DNA of 36,619 nt from the NCBI GenBank assembly GCA_046760985.1, contig JBHIFE010000001.1, forward strand, positions 1-36,619, given 5' to 3'. The position numbers and the translations under genes were made by a program. This DNA comes from Dehalococcoidales bacterium (GTDB taxonomy: Bacteria > Chloroflexota > Dehalococcoidia > Dehalococcoidales > RBG-16-60-22). The notes beneath the pieces are model-generated. The model was not told the origin of the DNA. It saw only the letters and a program-made list of their open reading frames with translations, and did not search any database. Below, piece by piece: positions 1,397 to 11,133 of this stretch; position 1 is the first letter of the stretch; the number at the start of each line of letters is the position of its first letter.

Positions 1397-2569
1397 TTAA
1401 AAGCCTAACCTTTTCCGCTCCGTTAGCTTAACCTCCTCCTGCCAGGGAGGAATTAAATAGACCAGCACGGCAAAAATCACCAGCGGCATTAGCAGTAACA
1501 CTATGACTACAATTATGCCGTTTAGCCCCAGCAGGGGTGGCGTATAACTAGTGAACCCCCTGAGACTTTTGGAAATTAACTGCCCCCCGATGACCACGTT
1601 CCAGCGCATGGCCAAGACTCCAATGAGAGCAAAACTGGCCGTTAGCGCTCTTATCGGCATCTTGATGTCTTCGCCGAGTCTGCTTAATTCAACGAACCCC
1701 AAAACGAATAACGGCAACACCGAGCCCAGGATAAACTGGACGCCAAAATAGCTGAAGGCAATCTTTTCGGTGATCAGCCGGGAGATGATTCCCCAGCTCT
1801 CTTCGGCCTCATAGAACATGGAGAAGACTTCCAGACCTTCCAAAACTACATTCACGCTTAAGAACCCCCCTAACCACAGAGCCAAGGAATGTAAGCAGGC
1901 GTGGTCCAGGGGTGCTCGTCTGATTTTGGCCACGGCGATGTACATCACAATCAGCAGGGCTATGCCCGAAACTATGGCTGACGTCAGGAAGATGATGGGC
2001 ATAAGTGGTGTTGACCACCAGGGATTAGCCTTAACCGCCCCGAAGATAAAGCCAACATAACCGTGAAGGAGAAAGGCAGCCGGGATGCCAATAAAGGCCA
2101 GTACTTTAATTAGCTTCTTATCAATGGCCACGGATTCTTCTGAAGTATCATAGACGCCCAAGGCTAACACGGAGTAAATGGTTTTCTTGGTGCCTTCGCT
2201 CGATTTGGCGTATCTCACGATGTTTGGCCTAAAAATGAGCCAGACTTCTAGAAGTACCAGCAGCAGGTAGAAAAACCATATGTAGCCAAAAGCCGCCATG
2301 GCCGAGGTAAGATTCGGCGTCAGGAACATTTCCAGTGCTCTTTCGGGTCGTCCCAGATGGATAATTAACGGTAGGGGTGTAATCACCAGAAAAGCCAACG
2401 CCACAACCAGGGAAAAGCGGGCCACCGGCTTAAGTACCTTTAGCCCGAACACGTGGTGAAGTGATGAGACAACAAAGGCACCAGCCACCAGTCCGGTGAT
2501 AAAGGGGTAAATAAAAATGAGCAAATCCCACTGTATCACGGTTTCGTTAGGAAAGACGAATCCAGACAC
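1397..2569 (-). CDS. NrfD/PsrC/ActC/DsrP-family polytopic membrane subunit (quinone-interacting)
   Basis: 390 aa, about 8-10 predicted TM helices and no heme motifs. GTG start lies 3 nt after the stop of the NrfC-like gene. Size and position directly after a TAT 4-cluster ferredoxin are typical of NrfD-family partners. Confidence 0.8.
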   Translation of the reverse strand: MSGFVFPNETVIQWDLLIFIYPFITGLVAGAFVVSSLHHVFGLKVLKPVARFSLVVALAFLVITPLPLIIHLGRPERALEMFLTPNLTSAMAAFGYIWFFYLLLVLLEVWLIFRPNIVRYAKSSEGTKKTIYSVLALGVYDTSEESVAIDKKLIKVLAFIGIPAAFLLHGYVGFIFGAVKANPWWSTPLMPIIFLTSAIVSGIALLIVMYIAVAKIRRAPLDHACLHSLALWLGGFLSVNVVLEGLEVFSMFYEAEESWGIISRLITEKIAFSYFGVQFILGSVLPLFVLGFVELSRLGEDIKMPIRALTASFALIGVLAMRWNVVIGGQLISKSLRGFTSYTPPLLGLNGIIVVIVLLLMPLVIFAVLVYLIPPWQEEVKLTERKRLGF

Positions 2570-2572
2570 GGT

Positions 2573-3358
2573 TTAATGCACCCCCTTTTCGAAGCCAATG
2601 TAATAGACCTTCGGCTCGGTTCCCAAGTCCGGTTTCAAAACGTAGACGTGCCTCTCTCTAAGTATTTTGGTCACCTGCCCCTCAGGGTCATGCAGATCAC
2701 CAAAAACTCTTGCCCCTACCGGACACACTTCCATGCAGGCAGGGACCAGTCCATGGGTAATTCGGTGGTAACACCAGGTGCATTTATCGACCACCCCTTT
2801 CTCGGGGAGGAAAAATCTAGCCCCATAGGGGCATGCCTGAATGCAGTACCGGCAGCCAATGCAGCGGTCCTGGTCAATTAGGATAACACCGTCATCCGTC
2901 TGATAGGTGGCGCCAACCGGACAAACCGTGACGCACGGGGGATTATCGCACTGGTTGCATAGTTTGGGCACAAAAAAGCTTTTCCAGACCTCGAGACCCT
3001 GGTACTTAGCGGTGAATCCGTCTCGGCCGGCATTTGGAGAGTCCACGAAGATTTCCCCATCGGCAGTGATGACGTATCTCTCTACCCAGGTTCGGTTGTA
3101 TTCAGGCTTCCAGGGCACCTTGTTTTCTAACTTACAGGCGACGACGCACCTACCACAGCCGATGCATTTCTCGTTATCACAGACAAATCCCCAGTAATGT
3201 TTCTCCAAATCGTATTGGCTATAGTTCGCTGCTGCCGCCGGCTGGCTAAATTCGCCCTGCATAAACTGGCGCAGCAGAGGCGGCATGTTGTAAACAAGCA
3301 TCCCCCCCAGCAAACCCTTGGCCCCCATTTTGATAAAATCCCGTCGGGAAATCTTCAT
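2573..3358 (-). CDS. TAT-exported NrfC/PsrB/DsrO-like ferredoxin with four [4Fe-4S] motifs
   Basis: Start moved to MKISRRDFIKMGAKG (twin-arginine signal), with AAGGAGAG SD, 2 nt after the decaheme stop. Cluster motifs: CIGCGRCVVAC, CNQCDNPPCVTVCP, CIGCRYCIQACP, CTWC...CMEVCP. Confidence 0.85.
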   Translation of the reverse strand: MKISRRDFIKMGAKGLLGGMLVYNMPPLLRQFMQGEFSQPAAAANYSQYDLEKHYWGFVCDNEKCIGCGRCVVACKLENKVPWKPEYNRTWVERYVITADGEIFVDSPNAGRDGFTAKYQGLEVWKSFFVPKLCNQCDNPPCVTVCPVGATYQTDDGVILIDQDRCIGCRYCIQACPYGARFFLPEKGVVDKCTWCYHRITHGLVPACMEVCPVGARVFGDLHDPEGQVTKILRERHVYVLKPDLGTEPKVYYIGFEKGVH

Positions 3359-3360
3359 TT

Positions 3361-4305
3361 CTAACGCTCTCCTTGCCCAGTCCGATGACAATTCAAGCAG
3401 ACGTCGCTAGTGAGCCCAGCATGCTCGACAGAAACGGCAATGGCGCCACTGGCATGGCACATCAGGCAGTCATCGTGTCCTTCCAGGGCGTGTGGTATTA
3501 TGGGCGGTGCACTGACGGGCGCGGGAGTTGGTAGTAGTGCCGATGCCGAGGTTGATGCTTCGGCTAGCTGATGGCAGGTGGTGCAAGTAATGCTGGTGCG
3601 CCCGACGTGGTCTTCCGGGACAGGCTTGATGGCACCGGTATTATGGCACGTCAGGCAATCGGTGCGCCCCTCTAAGGTATGTGGAATTCGAGGTAGTGTT
3701 GCTCCTCTGAATTCCTTGGGACCGTGGCACGACAGACACTTAGTGCGTCCCTCTAGGGTATGGGGAATCTCAGGGGGCGGTTCAGTCCAAGGCTCATGAG
3801 GCCCATGGCACAACTGGCATTCAGTGCGTCCCTCTAATGTATGTGGCACCTGGGGTGGCATCCCGGCTCTGGGTTCATGCGGGTCATGGCAGGTAACACA
3901 CTCGGCATTTCCCCCCATCTCTTCTATATCCACCTGGGGGAAGTTGCTAGGCCGGGAAACAAGCTTGGCATGGCATAATCCGCAGAGCTCTCTCGAGGTA
4001 TTCAGGGCAAGAGGTGCTCCAGTTTTGGCATGGGTCATTGCTGGGCCATGGCAATTCTCGCAGCTAATTGTCCGATGGTTGCCCTTCTCCCACATATCAT
4101 GTTTGTCTGGGTGGCAATCAACGCATACCGAGGAGCTGATATATTGGACGGGCAGGCTTGCCCACTGCTCCCGGTTCCCCTCGTTATCCCTGGGGCGAAA
4201 GCCGTATTCAGTAAGGAACTCGGGAGCCGGTATCACTCTCAGCCCAATGAAAATAAATATGAGTACCACTGATAATAATGCTCCGGCCCTTTTCAAATGG
4301 ATCAT
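3361..4305 (-). CDS. Membrane-anchored decaheme c-type cytochrome
   Basis: N-terminal hydrophobic anchor (ALLSVVLIFIFIGL) and ten CxxCH motifs: CVDCH, CENCH, CGLCH, CVTCH, CQLCH, CLSCH, CLTCH, CTTCH, CLMCH, CLNCH. The motif PH(T/A)LEG(R/H)xxCxxCH occurs four times. Confidence 0.85.
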   Translation of the reverse strand: MIHLKRAGALLSVVLIFIFIGLRVIPAPEFLTEYGFRPRDNEGNREQWASLPVQYISSSVCVDCHPDKHDMWEKGNHRTISCENCHGPAMTHAKTGAPLALNTSRELCGLCHAKLVSRPSNFPQVDIEEMGGNAECVTCHDPHEPRAGMPPQVPHTLEGRTECQLCHGPHEPWTEPPPEIPHTLEGRTKCLSCHGPKEFRGATLPRIPHTLEGRTDCLTCHNTGAIKPVPEDHVGRTSITCTTCHQLAEASTSASALLPTPAPVSAPPIIPHALEGHDDCLMCHASGAIAVSVEHAGLTSDVCLNCHRTGQGER

Positions 4306-4370
4306 TTTTGGTCTTTCCCCACCACTGCTTTGTAGTTAAAACTTACCCTGTTCATATCCTTTTACTCAGT

Positions 4371-5249
4371 TTAGTGGCAGTTCAGGCACAAATCGTTACC
4401 GCGGCCACTGTGATCAGAAGGAACCTTGGGCACGCCCCCGATGCCAGTTTCATGACAAAGCAAACAGGAGAGGCGTCCCTCTAGGGAATGCGGCACCTGA
4501 GGAGGGGTGGTTGGCGCCGGTGGCGCTGGTGCTGCTTCCTCGGGGGTCTGGGGTACCTCGGCTGAGGTTTTCTTCAGAGTTGTGAGATACAGCGAGATGC
4601 TCTCTATTTCCTCGTGAGTCAATGCCCCTAGGTAACCGGGCATGGCTGAGTTTGGATTAATCACCAGAGGGTCTTCCAAGTATTTGTGAATCCAGCTCAG
4701 GGTTCGCCGCTCCGTCAGCCCGGCAAGGTCAGGACCAATGGTTCCGCCTACTCCATTTATGGCATGGCAACTGGCGCAATCCTGCTCATGATATAATTTG
4801 TCCCCTAATTCAATATAGGCGGAGCGGGAAGACATTGAGGGTGGTGCTGCAGCTATCCCCTGAACGGTCAAAAAAATGATGGTCGCGATGACAAAAAGAC
4901 CAATCCCGGAGGCTAACGGTCGCCGGAAGGGTCTCATTATCGGACTTCGGTCAAAAAAGGGTAATAAAAGTAAGGCTAGGATGGCTAATGCCGGCACAAT
5001 AACGGCACCAACAAACTCCAGTTCGCCGGGGAAGAATTCGAGTAGTTTGAAGAGGAACAGAAAGTACCATTCCGGTCGGGGGATGTAGCTTGTGTCCATT
5101 GGTCGGGCTACGCTTTCATGTGCTGGCGGGAAAAACACAACTATTAGCACCAGCACCAGGAAAACTACAAGCATCACTATTGCCCCCATAAAGGCATGGT
5201 CGGGCCAGAATGTCTCACGCTTCTCTTGGGGTTTACGTCTTTCTAGCAC
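4371..5249 (-). CDS. qcrC: Cytochrome b subunit IV fused to c-type cytochrome domain (QcrC-like), with an extra C-terminal diheme module (3 CxxCH in total)
   Basis: Start moved to GTG at 5249 (AAGGGAGGGG SD, 25 nt after the cytochrome b stop). The track's longer ORF overlaps cytochrome b by 98 nt. PEWYFLFLF is the Qo-site motif and three TM helices are present. A monoheme domain follows (CASCH...NSAMPGY), then VPHSLEGRLSCLLCH...SDHSGRGNDLCLNCH. Confidence 0.8.
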   Translation of the reverse strand: MLERRKPQEKRETFWPDHAFMGAIVMLVVFLVLVLIVVFFPPAHESVARPMDTSYIPRPEWYFLFLFKLLEFFPGELEFVGAVIVPALAILALLLLPFFDRSPIMRPFRRPLASGIGLFVIATIIFLTVQGIAAAPPSMSSRSAYIELGDKLYHEQDCASCHAINGVGGTIGPDLAGLTERRTLSWIHKYLEDPLVINPNSAMPGYLGALTHEEIESISLYLTTLKKTSAEVPQTPEEAAPAPPAPTTPPQVPHSLEGRLSCLLCHETGIGGVPKVPSDHSGRGNDLCLNCH

Positions 5250-5274
5250 CTTTTCCCCTCCCTTTGGCTTATCT

Positions 5275-5946
5275 TCACAAGGGACGAGAGATTCCTTGCC
5301 TTCGCACCATAAAGAAGTGCAAACCAAGTAAGAACAGGAGTATCGCCGGCAAAAACCCGATATGGATGGCATAGAAGCGAACTAAAGTCACAGCACCAAC
5401 CTCAGCTCCTCCCCTCACCAGCTTAAGGAGATAGTCGCCAATGAAAGGCACCAAGCTAATCATGCTGGTACCTACCGAGGTTGCCCAGTAGGACCTTTGA
5501 TTCCACGGGAGAAGGTAACCGGTGAAACTGAAACCCAGGACGATTAAAAGAAGCAGCACGCCAACCACCCAGTTCAACTCTCTTGGATTCTTGTATGCTC
5601 CGTGAAAGTAGACACGCAGTGTGTGGAGCACCACCATGACTATTATGGCACTGGCACCCCAGTAGTGAATGCCACGGACCAACCAACCCAAAGTAACATT
5701 ATTCATTATGTATTGTACCGAGTCATAGGCATGGTCGGGGGAGGGGACATAATAGATAATCAGAAAAAGTCCGGTCAGGAACATCAGCAGGATGATGAAA
5801 GCAGCGATGCCGCCAAAGCAATAAACGAAGGCACTAGGGTGCTTGAGGGGATTCGCATGCTCCGGTACCGGATGGTCTAACTGGTTATCAATCGCCTTCT
5901 TGATATTGAGGCGTTTATCTATTACATCGTAGATTCGTCCTAGCAC
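5275..5946 (-). CDS. qcrB: Cytochrome b6-type subunit (N-terminal four-helix half of cytochrome b)
   Basis: 223 aa. Helix B has H-x13-H (HYWGASAIIVMVVLH) and helix D has H-x14-H (HIGFLPAILLFLLGLH), the b6/Firmicutes-type spacing. VYCFGG carries the conserved Cys (codon 5818-5820) that binds heme ci in b6f and Bacillus-type complexes. Confidence 0.9.
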   Translation of the reverse strand: MLGRIYDVIDKRLNIKKAIDNQLDHPVPEHANPLKHPSAFVYCFGGIAAFIILLMFLTGLFLIIYYVPSPDHAYDSVQYIMNNVTLGWLVRGIHYWGASAIIVMVVLHTLRVYFHGAYKNPRELNWVVGVLLLLIVLGFSFTGYLLPWNQRSYWATSVGTSMISLVPFIGDYLLKLVRGGAEVGAVTLVRFYAIHIGFLPAILLFLLGLHFFMVRRQGISRPL

Positions 5947-5966
5947 TTGCCCTCTTTCCCATAAAC

Positions 5967-6587
5967 TTAGAGTTCAATCTTCTCGGCGATACCGGCTCGG
6001 AAATCCTTATAGATGGTGAAAAGTTTGCCATCTTCTACTTTCACAGAAAGGGTATCCAGGGGGCGGGGTGGCGGACCACCCAGCACCGTGCCATCAATGT
6101 CAAATATGCCATCATGGCACGGGCAAAAGAAGTGGTCTTTATCAGGCATGGCTGAGCCATAGGCGGTTTGATGTGGTTCTCCTTTCAGTTTCCAGCTGTA
6201 AGCGCAACTCAGATGAGTGCACCTTGGGTTAAACACGGTGAAGTTCTCCTCATCTTGCTTTACCACCCAAACTGCTCTGGGCGCTGTTTCCATAACCCAG
6301 CCATCTATTTTGGCGGTGGTCCACTGCACCATGGTTGGTCGCCCCACCTCAAAATCCTCTATCTTGCCCAACTCTACCCACCCCGACCATCCCCTTTTTT
6401 TGTGTAAGACTGGTGAAATTAGGCTCCCGATAAGGGGAATCCCCATCAAAGCGGTAATCACCGCTCCTATCCCAATAGTTGCATAGCCCAAGAATCTTCT
6501 TCTGGATATAGGTTCACCTTCAAATTTGGATTTAGGTTTAGCTTCCCCCCTTGATAAAGATTTATCTTTCCAATCAAAGCTCACCAC
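5967..6587 (-). CDS. qcrA: Rieske [2Fe-2S] subunit with TAT signal
   Basis: SRRRFLGYATIG twin-arginine/anchor segment. Cluster boxes are CTHLSC and CPCHDG. GTG start with GAGG SD. Confidence 0.9.
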   Translation of the reverse strand: MVSFDWKDKSLSRGEAKPKSKFEGEPISRRRFLGYATIGIGAVITALMGIPLIGSLISPVLHKKRGWSGWVELGKIEDFEVGRPTMVQWTTAKIDGWVMETAPRAVWVVKQDEENFTVFNPRCTHLSCAYSWKLKGEPHQTAYGSAMPDKDHFFCPCHDGIFDIDGTVLGGPPPRPLDTLSVKVEDGKLFTIYKDFRAGIAEKIEL

Positions 6588-6640
6588 TTGCTACCTCGCA
6601 TCGTCATAGTTCACCTTGCTAAGATTGCTTTGGTTCCCGT

Positions 6641-7402
6641 CTACTCTTTGGACGGGGTTGCCCTGTTGGACAAGGCGCCAAGGATATCCACTGTCAGCGG
6701 AATGACGGTGCTATTTCTCTCGCCGGCCATCTCGACCAAGGTTTGGAGGTAGCGTAGCTGCAATGCTATCGGCTGCGTTTGGATAATCTTAGCCGCTTCC
6801 GCTAAGGTTTCCGCAGCTAGCCGTTCACCTTGGGCATGGATAACTTTGCCTCGCTTTTCCCGCTCTGCCTCAGCCTGCCGGGCCATCGCCCGCTGCATCG
6901 CCTCGGGAAGGAGAACATCCTTAACCTCCACCAGCGTGGCACTGACCCCCCATGGCTCCTCACTTTCTTTGTCAATAATCTGCCGCAGTCTCAAGTTTAT
7001 CTGGTCACGGTGGGCAAGCAGTTCGTCCAGCTCTGACTGTCCCAGAACGCTCCTGAGGGTGGTTAGGGCGAGCTGAATGATAGCTTCTCGGTAGTTCTCA
7101 ACATTAATCGCCGCTTTCACTGGGTCAACCACCATAAAGTAGACCACGGCATCGACCTTGACGGTTACATTGTCCCTGGTTATCACCTCTTGCGGTTCCA
7201 GGACATAGGGGACAATACGGAGGCTAATCTTGGTCATGCGGTCAACAAAGGGGATAATCACGTTGAAGCCGGGGTTCCTGACTCCGACCAGTCGCCCGAA
7301 GCGAAGCACCACCCCGCGCTCATACTGTTTCACAATCTTGATAGCCGCCGCCAGTATCACCAATGCAGCTACAATGATAAGAAAGATAATCCACGCATTC
7401 AT
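6641..7402 (-). CDS. SPFH/band-7 (stomatin/slipin-like) membrane scaffold protein
   Basis: N-terminal TM (AWIIFLIIVAALVILAAAI), then IVKQYERGVVLRFGR...VITRDNVTVKVDAVVYF and a coiled-coil ARQAEAEREKR, all typical of SPFH proteins. Start set to ATG 7402 (GGAGGA 7 nt upstream). Confidence 0.9.
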   Translation of the reverse strand: MNAWIIFLIIVAALVILAAAIKIVKQYERGVVLRFGRLVGVRNPGFNVIIPFVDRMTKISLRIVPYVLEPQEVITRDNVTVKVDAVVYFMVVDPVKAAINVENYREAIIQLALTTLRSVLGQSELDELLAHRDQINLRLRQIIDKESEEPWGVSATLVEVKDVLLPEAMQRAMARQAEAEREKRGKVIHAQGERLAAETLAEAAKIIQTQPIALQLRYLQTLVEMAGERNSTVIPLTVDILGALSNRATPSKE

Positions 7403-7514
7403 ACTCAATTCCTCCTTTTTGTTTTTAACCTGATGTTTCTCTATTTATCACTTGGTGTCTCTCATGGGCACCTCCATCACGTAACTTGGCCAACCACGCC
7501 TTAATTGGCGCTCT

Positions 7515-7898
7515 TCAGCGGATAACCTTTCGCACCCGCATCAGTAGGTCACGCATATCAAAGGGTTTTTGAATATAGTCATCAGGCTTGAGCTTCTCTA
7601 TCAAAGCTACGTCCGGCGGTTCCACCGTGACCACAATTACCGGTATGTGACGCAGCGGTTCGGTCAGTCTGAGGAGGCTCAGGATACCCCAGCCGTTGAA
7701 GTCGGGCAAGGTGAGGTCTAAAAGAATAAGGTCGACCTGCGTATCATGAATTATTCTGATGCAGTCAAAGCCACTGGCTGCTTCCACAACCCGAATGTCT
7801 CCGCCTTCCAGATTGCGCCTGATCAGTTTGCTTATCTTCTGGTCGTCATCAACGACCAGAACTGAGAGACGCTTTACACCTTGAAACTTGGCTGGCAT
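7515..7898 (-). CDS. Stand-alone CheY-like receiver domain protein
   Basis: 127 aa with VLVVDDD...LILLDLTLPDFNG...KPF receiver signature and no output domain. AAGGTGAG SD. Confidence 0.85.
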   Translation of the reverse strand: MPAKFQGVKRLSVLVVDDDQKISKLIRRNLEGGDIRVVEAASGFDCIRIIHDTQVDLILLDLTLPDFNGWGILSLLRLTEPLRHIPVIVVTVEPPDVALIEKLKPDDYIQKPFDMRDLLMRVRKVIR

Positions 7899-7952
7899 AT
7901 CTCACCTTGATTTCCTGTGGATTCTACTTGCTCGGAAATGAAAAAAACATAA

Positions 7953-7989
7953 AATATAGGGCACAAAAAGTGAAAAATTCGTGAAAAAT
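7953..7989 (-). promoter_or_regulatory. Candidate promoter with tandem direct repeat (possible OmpR-family binding site) upstream of the receiver/SPFH/respiratory unit
   Basis: Perfect 9-bp direct repeat GTGAAAAAT at 7970-7978 and 7981-7989 (11-bp period). On the minus strand a TATATT -10-like hexamer lies at 7958-7953, so the proximal repeat overlaps the -35 position. The site is immediately downstream of the terminator of the regulator gene. Confidence 0.3.
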
Positions 7990-8006
7990 CTCAGGCAAAC
8001 GGGCAA

Positions 8007-8037
8007 ATAAAAAGCGCCTCCTTACTAATGGAGGCAC
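8007..8037 (-). terminator. Rho-independent terminator after the OmpR-type regulator gene
   Basis: The minus strand reads GUGCCUCC-AUUAGUAA-GGAGGCGC followed by UUUUUAUUU: an 8-bp stem whose 5'-most pair is a G-C or G-U wobble, then a U-run, starting 27 nt after the stop codon. Confidence 0.5.
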
Positions 8038-8063
8038 CTTTCTAAAAGGCGGCTGGCGGAACT

Positions 8064-8762
8064 CTACGCTGGGGAGACAAACATGTAGCCAATGCCGGGT
8101 TTGGAAAGGATATATTTGGGCTGGTGTGGATTTTCCTCTATCTTTTGTCGCAGATGGCGAATATAAGCTCTGAGGTACTCCAGCTCATCCTGATATTCGG
8201 CTCCCCACACTCTGGTCAGCAGCTCATGATGCAGCATCACCCGCCCGGCATTGCTCACCAGCTGGCACAAGAGCTTATACTCGGTGAGCGTCAATGCTAC
8301 CTCCTGCCCCTGCACCGTCACTCTACGTTGTGCGAAATCAACGCAAACATCGCCACAGGTGAAGGTAGGAGGCACTTTGGCTTCTTCCGAGGACCCGGTG
8401 CGCCGTAGCACTGCTTCTATCCTGGCGAGCAGCTCCTGAACGCTAAACGGCTTGGTCAGGTAGTCGTCAGCGCCTAATTTCAGCCCCCTCACCTTGTCAG
8501 TATCTTCTACTTTGGCGGTGAGCATGATGATTGGTGTAGCTGAGAACTCTCTGATTCGCTGACAGAGCTCATATCCGTCTATCTCCGGCAACATGATATC
8601 CAAGATAATCATGTCCGGCATCTCTATTTCGGCAAGCTTAAGGGCGGAACAAGCGTCCATGGCTATCAAAACCCGGTAGCCCACCGATTCCAGGTTGGCG
8701 CGCACCAACCTGATTAGCTGAGGGTCATCATCAACCAATAGAACCGAGGTTTTTTCCCCCAT
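8064..8762 (-). CDS. OmpR/PhoB-family response regulator (receiver + winged-helix DNA-binding domain)
   Basis: VLLVDDD...MIILDIMLPEIDG...KPF receiver plus LTLTEYKLLCQL...YLRAYIRHLRQKIE...GIGYMF winged-helix output. It lies 22 nt downstream of the kinase gene. Confidence 0.9.
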   Translation of the reverse strand: MGEKTSVLLVDDDPQLIRLVRANLESVGYRVLIAMDACSALKLAEIEMPDMIILDIMLPEIDGYELCQRIREFSATPIIMLTAKVEDTDKVRGLKLGADDYLTKPFSVQELLARIEAVLRRTGSSEEAKVPPTFTCGDVCVDFAQRRVTVQGQEVALTLTEYKLLCQLVSNAGRVMLHHELLTRVWGAEYQDELEYLRAYIRHLRQKIEENPHQPKYILSKPGIGYMFVSPA

Positions 8763-8784: not shown

Positions 8785-11133
8785 TTATTCGCTGTCTTCG
8801 ACTTTGTCCAAGGGCAAGCTAAAACAAAATTTGCTTCCCTTACCGACGGTACTTTCCAGCCAGACTTCGCCACCATGAGCCTCAACGTGACCTTTGGCAA
8901 TGGAGAGTCCGAGTCCGCTACCGGGGGTGCTATGGGTTACCCAGCTATCGACCCGGTAGAATCGCTCGAAAACCTTATCTTGGTGTTCTGGGGGGATGCC
9001 TATCCCCTGATCACTGACACTGACCACGACTTTACCATCTCTGGTCTCACCAGCTATGGTAACCTCACCACCCTCTGGCGAGTATTTTACCGCGTTTTCT
9101 GTCAGGTTGCGCAATACCTGTTCCATACACCGAACATCAGCCTCAATCACAGGGAAAGAAGGCGAAAATTGCAGGGTGAACTTATGATTCTTGGCTCGTG
9201 GGGCAATCTCATCCACAACCTTCTGGGCAAGTCGGGGGATCAGTACCGGCTCCTTTTCCAGTTTGAGGGCTCCGGCTTCTAGTTTGGCTGATTGCAGGAG
9301 CTTGTCAATCAGGTCGCGCAGTTCATCAGTCTTCTCATTGATAATCTGGAGGAACTCTCGCTGGGTTTCCTCTTCCCAAGAGGCATCTTGACGAAGCAAT
9401 GAGGTGGAATAGCCCTTGATGAGAGTAAGCGGGGTCCGTAGCTCATGGGAGACTGAGGAAATAATCTGAGACCTTAATCGGTCCGCCTCATGCAGAGCTC
9501 TTGCCTCCTCCGCCTCATTGGTCAGCTGGTCCCTTTCAATGGCTATGGCGATATAATCGGCTATAGCCTGGACAAGACGACGATCCGACTCAGAGAAGGC
9601 TTGAGTATCCCGAAAGCTTATCATAACAAGGCTTCCAATATGCCGGCCCTGATGGCATACCTGACCACAAATATGGCTCTGCGCTTTCGGGCGTAAAGCA
9701 TCAGACTGAAGAAACGCAGTAACTGCCGCTTTGACCCTATCTTGGCTATCATCATCTGTCGGCTCCGAAATCGAGCCTGATGAAAGCTCATTACCGCTAA
9801 ATATAAACTGAGAATGAGTTCCTTTGTCCAGCCCAACCGCAGACTGCACCACTAGACCACTTTGGTCGGCACCTTGGAGAAGCAACGCTCCACCATCTGC
9901 CCCAGAGATAATCTCCACCGCTTTAACCACCACCGCATCTAGAAGACGGGATAAATCAAGAGTGGAGGTTAGAATCTCCGACACCGAGAGTAGCGAAGAG
10001 AGCTCTTTCGTCCTTTGCTCTAGCTCACCATAAGAGGTCTTCAGTTTGGTCCGCATGTCGTCAAAAGTCTGGGCTAGTATGCCGACTTCGTCTTTACCTA
10101 AGGTGGTAACCGGGCTGCTTAAGTCCCCTTCGGCTATCCTTTGGGAAGCGGTGGTAAGCATCCTAATACGGCTGCCGATATCTCGTGTGGTTACTGCCAC
10201 AAACAGGAGACTAACAACGACCAATCCTACTCCGAAGAGAAGCAGATTTTGATACAATTCACGAGTGGGGGCGAGTGCTTCTTCCTCTGACTGCCGGATG
10301 ACAACACCCCAGTTGGCCTTGGAGAGGGGAACGAAGGCCAGCACATCCTTCCTGTCCACCTTTTGCCCTGGTTCATGACAGGTATGACACACCCCGCGGG
10401 TCGGCTCTCCAGCACTAATCAGCCTGGCAAAGCGACCACTATGGTCGCTTTTCTCAAAAGGAGCCAGCTTAGGCCCAGGCTCAGTTCTGGCGACGACAAT
10501 CCCGTTCTGGTCTACAATCTCGACATAGCCTGTCTCTCCCAGTCTTATGGGGCGGACGAAGCCGCCGATACTCGATTGAGCTAGGTCAATAGCCACCACG
10601 AGCACACTTTTGCTCCCTTGTTGTCCCTGTTTAGTGAGACTAGTAAGAAAAACCACCGGGGTATCAGTCACCGGCAATGAAGTAAGCCCAGAGATACTGG
10701 GCTCACCACTACTTATAGCTTGGCTGATGCTAGGATAGGAGGAAATATCAATATCTGCTATCCCCAAATCCTCTGGCTCACTCCATATAACCTGCCCTCT
10801 TTCATTGAGGAGATAGATGCTATGAGTATAAATGGACAACCGGGAATAGGTGTCCTCAAGTTCTTCTATCTGTGGTTCAAAGTTATCCTTTGCCCCGTCA
10901 CTTTCTATCATCTGGGCAGTGTTTTTCAGCTCAACGAGAGCACGCCCCAGCGCTTCGTCCAGGTAGTCGGCTACCAGGCGGGCAGTAGTCAGCCGGTCTT
11001 GAAGCATGGTTTCGGTAGCCTTGTTCACCGCTCCCATGCCCAAAGAGCTAAATACTCCAATGCCCAGTAGCAGCCCTAGCGTAGTCAGGAGAGTAATCTT
11101 TTTCCCCAGAGTTAGGTTTGTCAGTAATTTCAC
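8785..11133 (-). CDS. Sensor histidine kinase: TM, Cache-like extracytoplasmic domain with CxxCH, TM, HAMP, GAF, HisKA, HATPase
   Basis: TM helices at about aa 14-35 and 297-314. The intervening region has Cache-like YLLNERGQVIW and GYVEIVDQNGIVV strands and CHTCH at aa 249-253. H-box SHELRTPL, N-box NLTENAVKYS, G-boxes DQGIGI and GSGLGLSI. GTG start. Confidence 0.9.
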   Translation of the reverse strand: MKLLTNLTLGKKITLLTTLGLLLGIGVFSSLGMGAVNKATETMLQDRLTTARLVADYLDEALGRALVELKNTAQMIESDGAKDNFEPQIEELEDTYSRLSIYTHSIYLLNERGQVIWSEPEDLGIADIDISSYPSISQAISSGEPSISGLTSLPVTDTPVVFLTSLTKQGQQGSKSVLVVAIDLAQSSIGGFVRPIRLGETGYVEIVDQNGIVVARTEPGPKLAPFEKSDHSGRFARLISAGEPTRGVCHTCHEPGQKVDRKDVLAFVPLSKANWGVVIRQSEEEALAPTRELYQNLLLFGVGLVVVSLLFVAVTTRDIGSRIRMLTTASQRIAEGDLSSPVTTLGKDEVGILAQTFDDMRTKLKTSYGELEQRTKELSSLLSVSEILTSTLDLSRLLDAVVVKAVEIISGADGGALLLQGADQSGLVVQSAVGLDKGTHSQFIFSGNELSSGSISEPTDDDSQDRVKAAVTAFLQSDALRPKAQSHICGQVCHQGRHIGSLVMISFRDTQAFSESDRRLVQAIADYIAIAIERDQLTNEAEEARALHEADRLRSQIISSVSHELRTPLTLIKGYSTSLLRQDASWEEETQREFLQIINEKTDELRDLIDKLLQSAKLEAGALKLEKEPVLIPRLAQKVVDEIAPRAKNHKFTLQFSPSFPVIEADVRCMEQVLRNLTENAVKYSPEGGEVTIAGETRDGKVVVSVSDQGIGIPPEHQDKVFERFYRVDSWVTHSTPGSGLGLSIAKGHVEAHGGEVWLESTVGKGSKFCFSLPLDKVEDSE

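Follow-up and report, generated by a model that had tools for sequence, protein, structure and literature searches.

We report that a sensor histidine kinase encoded by a Dehalococcoidales bacterium carries a conserved heme c attachment motif, CHTCH, in its extracytoplasmic double-Cache domain. The gene lies within a 36,619-nucleotide stretch of DNA (hereafter, the window; contig JBHIFE010000001.1 of assembly GCA_046760985.1, positions 1 to 36,619) that belongs to a 1.42-Mb metagenome-assembled genome (MAG), 89.7% complete. The reading that we prefer, with a probability of about 70%, is that heme c is covalently held in the membrane-proximal module of this dCache_1 kinase, that it senses redox state or a small gas, and that it drives the neighboring respiratory operon via an OmpR-type partner. 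The parts of the kinase gene on which this reading rests are as follows (TM, transmembrane helix; aa, amino acids; conservation is the mean over alignment columns).

8785..11133, minus strand: sensor histidine kinase, 782 aa (open reading frame (ORF) and translation; all Pfam domains above their cut-offs)
11029..11097, minus strand: TM1, about aa 13-35 (hydropathy; a helix in the AlphaFold2 model)
10246..11028, minus strand: extracytoplasmic double-Cache (dCache_1) sensor domain, aa 36-296 (Pfam, Foldseek, PDB profile)
10579..10908, minus strand: membrane-distal Cache module, aa 76-185, variable among homologs (conservation 0.63)
10264..10578, minus strand: membrane-proximal Cache module, aa 186-290, which holds H231, CHTCH, W275 and R280 (conservation 0.87)
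10441..10443, minus strand: H231, candidate distal ligand at the N terminus of helix 232-241 (conserved with and without the motif)
10375..10389, minus strand: CHTCH, C249-H253, proposed covalent heme c attachment site, with H253 as proposed proximal axial ligand (sequence, conservation, AlphaFold2 model)
10294..10296, minus strand: R280, candidate heme-propionate partner (Arg in 86% of motif-bearing relatives, Glu in 70% of motif-lacking ones)
10183..10245, minus strand: TM2, about aa 297-317, followed by HAMP (Pfam, AlphaFold2 model, hydropathy)

An earlier note on this DNA had pointed to a CHTCH motif in the kinase. Re-reading of the window confirmed it: the bases TGTCATACCTGTCAT (TGT CAT ACC TGT CAT) occur once, at 10375-10389 of the minus strand, and encode C249-H250-T251-C252-H253; the translation around the motif reads TRGVCHTCHEPGQK. 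With the Cys and His contents of this genome (1.2% and 1.9%), the number expected by chance in 261 residues is ~7e-4 for CxxCH and ~1.3e-5 for CHxCH, and the presence of CxxCH in the sensor domain is not due to chance.

Conservation of the motif among homologous Cache kinases, which the same note had named as a check, was analyzed at two depths. A word-indexed search with aa 1-320 as a query returned 306 homologs, the best 120 of which (63-87% identity) come from MAGs of Dehalococcoidales and other Chloroflexota and differ in their outputs, with HisKA or HisKA_3 and with or without GAF. CxxCH is present at the same place in all 121 sequences of this close set (query included), as CHTCH in 120 and as CHSCH in one. 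When the sensor domain alone was used in an exhaustive HMMER search against 1.84 billion representatives, only 536 proteins (clusters at 50% identity) matched at E <= 1e-3, and the sensor therefore defines a discrete subfamily rather than a generic dCache domain. The motif is kept in 106 of the 133 top matches that could be aligned, down to about 29% identity; 101 of these 106 read CHxCH, and the C-x-x-C-H spacing is exact in every one of them. A relative without CxxCH carries CHSGCH; this CX3CH spacing is a known variant of heme c attachment.

The order of segments in the kinase, from Pfam and hydropathy, is TM1, dCache_1, TM2, HAMP, GAF, HisKA and HATPase_c. The hidden Markov model (HMM) of dCache_1 (PF02743) matches aa 50-279 with 56.6 bits (60.0 bits for the sensor domain alone; cut-off 45), and the remaining domains occupy aa 316-365 (HAMP), 392-533 (GAF), 554-621 (HisKA) and 667-776 (HATPase_c). 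The ORF starts with a GTG codon, which matches the N termini of homologs; these open MKFLTNLTLGKKI. Kyte-Doolittle hydropathy (19-aa windows > 1.6) detected only two hydrophobic segments, centered at aa 22-28 and 301-311; K2, K11 and K12 precede the first one, while R317, R322, R324 and the HAMP domain follow the second. This arrangement of two hydrophobic segments with flanking Lys and Arg residues and a HAMP domain after TM2 places aa 36-296 outside the cytoplasm. Hence Pfam domain positions and hydropathy agree on a motif that lies between the two TM helices on the extracytoplasmic side, as had been proposed. A second string of this kind, CGQVCH (CX3CH; aa 489-494, 9652-9669, minus strand), is located in the cytoplasmic GAF domain, was found in 0 of 93 long homologs and is probably incidental.

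HMM, PDB profile and fold all identify the sensor as a classical dCache_1 domain. An AlphaFold2 model of aa 1-320, built from a 44-sequence alignment and without heme (mean predicted local distance difference test score (pLDDT) 83, predicted template modeling score 0.78), consists of TM1 running into a long helix (helix 9-75), two alpha/beta modules and TM2. This is the dCache_1 architecture: a long N-terminal helix, then two tandem PAS-like alpha/beta modules, all between two TM helices. The top structures retrieved by Foldseek were PscC, PctA/B, rpHK1S-Z16, DctB, KinD and Mlp24 (E 1e-10 to 1e-12; target TM-scores mostly 0.65-0.76), with no heme proteins among the top 50. Consistently, a profile of the family matched KinD (2.6e-10), and also PscC and PctA, when run against the PDB. 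The same profile gave no match to solved chains of sCache_heme (PF11845, Tll0287-like), a heme-binding Cache family, at E <= 10, and the PF11845 HMM did not match the sensor domain at E up to 10. When the genome was searched in six frames, PF11845 gave nothing on the kinase gene; its only match (14.6 bits) was in an unrelated cytochrome ORF. We conclude that the sensor is dCache_1 and not sCache_heme.

In the model, residues 249-252 of the motif fold into a short helix in the proximal module, directly preceded by strand 245-248 and followed by strand 263-269. Structure prediction and Foldseek thus bear out both the Cache-like fold suggested in the note and the position of the motif at the beta3-beta4 link of the membrane-proximal Cache module, the usual ligand pocket of the Cache fold. 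The loop 251-260 is modeled with low confidence (mean pLDDT 60), which might be consistent with a pocket modeled without its heme. The proximal module is the most conserved part of the sensor, and the invariant sensor residues include H231, C249, H250, C252, H253 and W275. When 106 motif-bearing relatives were compared with 23 that lack the motif, the positions that track it were the motif residues themselves, R280 and D230; from this sequence pattern, R280 is a plausible heme-propionate partner.

Within the motif, H250 is 95% conserved. Where it is replaced by Tyr or Phe (CYRCH, CFGCH, CFRCH), position 231 is Tyr or Ser instead of His in four of five sequences, compared with 6 of 101 otherwise. 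This co-change hints at two residues acting together, and the sequences concerned may be a single clade.

Covalent attachment of heme is possible in this genome, as judged from its gene content. Contig C24 carries a complete Ccm system I: CcmE, CcmF, CcmH, CcmB and CcmC were detected by Pfam, CcmA is an ABC ATPase identified by position and sequence, and a CcmD-like small ORF is also present. ResB was not found in the genome, which encodes several multiheme cytochromes. A paralogous kinase of 767 aa (contig C24:8313-10616, plus strand) directly follows ccmABCD; its sensor is 75% identical to that of the window kinase and has CHTCH at position 250, its output is of the HisKA_3 type, and a NarL-type regulator is encoded next to it (contig C24:10627-11274, plus strand).

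Two further observations were made on contig C24. CcmE (1486-1875, plus strand) ends ...VKCPSKYVPKK, a Cys-type (CxxxY) heme-binding variant rather than the His-type (HxxxY) of E. coli; the Cys type has been described in archaea and certain sulfate reducers. Between ccmC and the paralogous kinase, at about 8050-8225 (plus strand), a small ORF, MENANYLFAAFAIVWAVIFGYILLLFNSQRRLRREIDSLKEALKKKG..., encodes a single hydrophobic helix and is conserved in eight loci; by sequence it is probably CcmD. This conserved block had been considered as a non-coding operator, which we rejected, as the block is the CcmD-like ORF.

Co-occurrence of the sensor with cytochrome c assembly genes was analyzed in 201 Dehalococcoidia species genomes. 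The sensor is present in 33 of them (about 16%), in up to six copies per genome. A Cytochrom_C_asm gene was found in 32/33 genomes with the sensor versus 127/168 without it (p = 0.004), and CcmE in 27/33 versus 67/168 (p = 1.4e-5), both p values being uncorrected for phylogeny. No copy of the sensor was found in the complete Dehalococcoides-like genomes, which belong to the same order; in that family, three of seven genomes are also devoid of cytochrome c assembly genes.

The kinase gene is followed on the same strand by a regulator gene, a terminator, a set of repeats and the putative target unit.

8064..8762, minus strand: OmpR/PhoB-type response regulator (REC + Trans_reg_C), 22 nt downstream of the kinase (Pfam; synteny)
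8005..8043, minus strand: intrinsic terminator closing the kinase-regulator operon (by folding, a hairpin of -20.7 kcal/mol, z = -5.2, followed by a U-run)
7938..7988, minus strand: four direct repeats TTTTTCAY with 11/22/11-bp phasing, candidate OmpR-family operator over the -35 region (conserved across eight loci)
7921..7926, minus strand: -10-like TAGAAT, 11 nt after the last repeat (A72 and T76 invariant in alignment A3)
1397..7898, minus strand: putative target unit encoding REC, SPFH, Rieske, cytochrome b, a subunit IV-cytochrome c fusion, a decaheme cytochrome (10 CxxCH), a 4Fe-4S protein and NrfD (Pfam; synteny)

A kinase with HisKA and HATPase_c that adjoins a REC + Trans_reg_C regulator on the same strand constitutes a two-component system of the OmpR/PhoB type. 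Its genomic setting was compared across 19 loci from GTDB species genomes, all of them Dehalococcoidia MAGs, collected with a single-domain query that reaches only close relatives. These loci fall mainly into two syntenies. Type A, the arrangement in the window, comprises the kinase, the OmpR regulator, a single REC, SPFH, a multiheme cytochrome, an iron-sulfur (FeS) protein and NrfD; it recurs, complete or up to the end of the contig, in L003, L004, L005, L011, L013, L018 and L020, with the Rieske/cytochrome b cassette present only in some loci. In type B, ccmEFH..ABC is followed by the kinase and a NarL regulator (L006, L007, L009, L015, L016, L017 and L021, seven loci besides that of the genome itself). 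The placement of the kinase and its OmpR-type partner upstream of a cytochrome-rich operon, also remarked on in the earlier note, is thus syntenic in seven other Dehalococcoidia loci.

The TTTTTCAY repeats and the -10 box are kept in all eight type A loci although the flanks diverge, and the tandem repeat pair occurs twice in the 1.42-Mb genome versus 0.13 occurrences expected. The second genomic tandem pair, TTTTCAY at 9744-9761 of contig C16, lies within coding sequence and was treated as a chance occurrence. By analogy, the repeat layout is as expected for an OmpR/PhoB-type activator, with the last site replacing the -35 element. A hairpin and T-run matching the terminator were seen by eye, without folding, at the same place in L003, L004 and L005.

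Two genes of the putative target unit deserve mention on their own account. Its first gene (7515-7898, minus strand) encodes a stand-alone receiver domain that is kept in L003, L004, L005 and L013, and also in L026; this receiver could be a phosphate sink or a feedback element of the same two-component system. An SPFH/Band_7 protein (6641-7408, minus strand; with NfeD in L024:15136-17401) accompanies kinase-linked cytochrome operons in both close and distant relatives.

More distant motif-bearing relatives stand in front of other gene sets with redox or respiratory functions. P0164 precedes an Hdr/Mvh-like set, and P0194 precedes multiheme cytochromes, cytochrome b and NfeD/SPFH. P0233 (L025:7276-13240), a CHDCH member with 29% identity, is accompanied by a NarL regulator and a single REC, followed by a small cytochrome c, a cupredoxin and a reductive dehalogenase with a VcrB-like anchor. 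This gene order suggests control of organohalide respiration by a heme-dCache sensor in a Chloroflexota MAG.

We propose the following sequence of events. The kinase would be inserted with its N terminus in the cytoplasm and aa 36-296 outside, where Ccm system I would attach heme to C249 and C252. H253 would serve as the proximal iron ligand, placing the heme where beta3 and beta4 of the membrane-proximal Cache module are connected. The heme might then be oxidized or reduced by an extracytoplasmic or quinone-linked redox pool; alternatively, a small ligand such as NO, CO, O2 or sulfide might bind at its distal face. Either change would reach the GAF-HisKA-HATPase core by way of TM2 and HAMP and there set the activity of the kinase. 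The phosphorylated OmpR-type regulator would in turn bind the four phased TTTTTCAY repeats overlapping the -35 region and activate the REC-SPFH-Rieske/cytochrome b-multiheme-NrfCD respiratory unit.

Several observations weigh against this proposal. The link between the TTTTTCAY repeats and this particular OmpR-type regulator is a predicted one, and the pocket geometry and the distal ligand are candidates taken from a model that contains no heme. H231, the obvious candidate for a distal ligand, is equally conserved in relatives without the motif. The association with Ccm ignores phylogeny, and the base rate of Ccm/Ccs in Dehalococcoidia is high. In a quick tree of the family, made with the motif columns removed, motif-lacking members form at least five supported clades nested among motif-bearing ones (a minimum of nine motif changes, five of them forced by supported branches), and the motif therefore looks ancestral and repeatedly lost. 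Finally, P0278 (L026:4920-14533), which lacks the motif (...RYVVVEEG...), keeps the same gene arrangement of Rieske, cytochrome b, kinase, OmpR, REC, multiheme, FeS and NrfD. The kinase can therefore be linked to that operon without heme, and the distal module or membrane-level inputs may carry signal too. Two further motif-lacking relatives are found in non-respiratory contexts. The L026 locus is a natural comparison case for what heme adds.

The retention of respiratory synteny by P0278, the loss of the motif from at least five supported clades with the rest of the domain kept, and the conservation of H231 without the motif would all fit a heme that is real but not the primary input. The distal module would then bind a small ligand, as the solved dCache receptors found by Foldseek do (amino acids and pyruvate are their named ligands), or the kinase would read a respiratory complex or the SPFH scaffold via its membrane parts, leaving the proximal heme a structural, modulatory or electron-transfer role. 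We consider this unlikely: conservation in the sensor is lowest in the distal module, the strongest constraint falls on the heme module, and no positions in the sensor were found to separate the two assignable kinase output classes (40 of 120 sequences were left unclassified by the regular-expression split into HisKA and HisKA_3). The conserved residues themselves invite another interpretation. A cluster of two Cys with two or three conserved His in a span of about 20 residues, a 95% conserved H250 that exceeds what heme attachment alone requires, and the joint change, seen in a few sequences, at positions 231 and 250 (H..H to Y..Y or Y..F) might indicate a metal (Zn, Cu or Fe) site, possibly including H231, or a thiol-disulfide redox switch. 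This is a good deal less probable than attachment of heme, given that the C-x-x-C-H spacing is exact in all 106 bearers and the CHSGCH relative departs from it only by a spacing that heme c attachment also tolerates, that R280 tracks the motif as a propionate partner would, that ccm synteny is seen in eight genomes and the sensor is associated with CcmE, and that the sensor is missing from the complete Dehalococcoides-like genomes, a family in which some genomes have no cytochrome c assembly gene at all. Tolerated loss of the motif in several lineages could also mean that it is a conserved but functionless relic, or the protein might not be heme-matured in this monoderm-like organism. We regard this as very improbable: the motif is kept over hundreds of sequences down to 29% identity, conservation peaks around it, and the same genome encodes multiheme cytochromes together with the full Ccm system. 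We therefore retain covalent heme c in the proximal module as the preferred reading.

A wider interpretation that joins these results is possible, and we offer it tentatively. Chloroflexota may own a covalent-heme Cache family, without detectable sequence relationship to sCache_heme, in which the proximal dCache_1 module, and not the distal one, is the sensing part. The two paralogs would divide the work: the ccm-linked kinase would report heme delivery or cytochrome c maturation, or extracytoplasmic redox state, while the other would switch on the Rieske/cytochrome b-multiheme-NrfCD unit. Cytochrome biogenesis and the expression of respiratory complexes would in this way be coordinated by sensors that are substrates of Ccm in their own right.

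No class of extracellular sensors in bacteria is larger than the Cache domains, which were for a long time assumed to lack cofactors. The present family, separate from sCache_heme and mostly from Chloroflexota, has a heme-attachment motif at the same topological spot, within a double-Cache scaffold. If heme binding is true, heme acquisition by Cache sensors happened more than once, and the little-understood membrane-proximal dCache module has a case as a sensing site. It would also provide a regulatory handle, made up of sensor, regulator, operator and target operon, on respiration in uncultured subsurface Dehalococcoidia, one that extends to relatives in which the same type of sensor precedes a reductive dehalogenase operon.

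Our literature searches on dCache or double Cache combined with CXXCH or heme found only the sCache_heme papers and unrelated work. A heme motif in a double-Cache scaffold was not found described in the searchable literature, and it differs from the published sCache_heme in both scaffold and sequence family. sCache_heme (PF11845, DUF3365/Tll0287-like) was presented by its authors in a 2026 preprint as the first Cache domain to carry a covalent cofactor; its CXXCH is in a helix inserted between beta3 and beta4, it is rare or absent in Chloroflexota according to the same authors, and named examples are GSU0582 and GSU0935 of Geobacter sulfurreducens, Tll0287 of Thermosynechococcus and a Cache_heme-HAMP receptor of Pseudomonas azotoformans (bioRxiv 10.64898/2026.02.01.703092, 10.64898/2026.05.25.727664). 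The two families share an extracytoplasmic Cache fold with CXXCH, fused to TM, HAMP and signaling outputs, and in both the motif is located in a short beta3-beta4 helix, a common position that does not imply homology; close relatives without the motif also exist in both. They differ in that sCache_heme is a single Cache domain, whereas the domain of our kinase is a double Cache whose membrane-proximal module bears the motif, in the CHxCH form of the motif here, in the lack of a detectable sequence relationship, and in that nearly all named members of the present family are from Chloroflexota. The Geobacter sensors, which the earlier note had listed as precedents, accordingly hold as functional analogs but not as members of the same family.

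DcrA of Desulfovibrio vulgaris is a membrane chemoreceptor whose periplasmic sensor region has CXXCH and a c-type heme; it is regarded as a sensor of redox state or oxygen. Its output is that of a chemoreceptor, while the present protein is a kinase, and the likeness is one of general description. With regard to output, the system resembles PhoB/OmpR-type class II activation, which takes place at tandem direct repeats (pho boxes): an OmpR-family regulator adjoins four 11-bp-phased direct repeats, the last of which overlaps the -35 region, and the -10 box is conserved. The difference from pho boxes lies in the sequence of the repeats, as TTTTTCAY is specific to this group; binding of the regulator to it is a prediction.

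The closest structural counterparts are the classical dCache_1 sensors (B. subtilis KinD, P. aeruginosa PctA/B/C, PscC, V. cholerae Mlp24/Mlp37, DctB and rpHK1S-Z16), with which our kinase shares the Pfam family, the fold and the TM-dCache-TM-HAMP arrangement. These sensors have no cofactor; small ligands, amino acids and pyruvate among them, are bound in their solved structures, and the ligands of classical dCache receptors are bound mainly in the distal module. In the present kinase, by contrast, the conserved heme motif and the strongest constraint are both found in the proximal module, and it is the distal module that varies.

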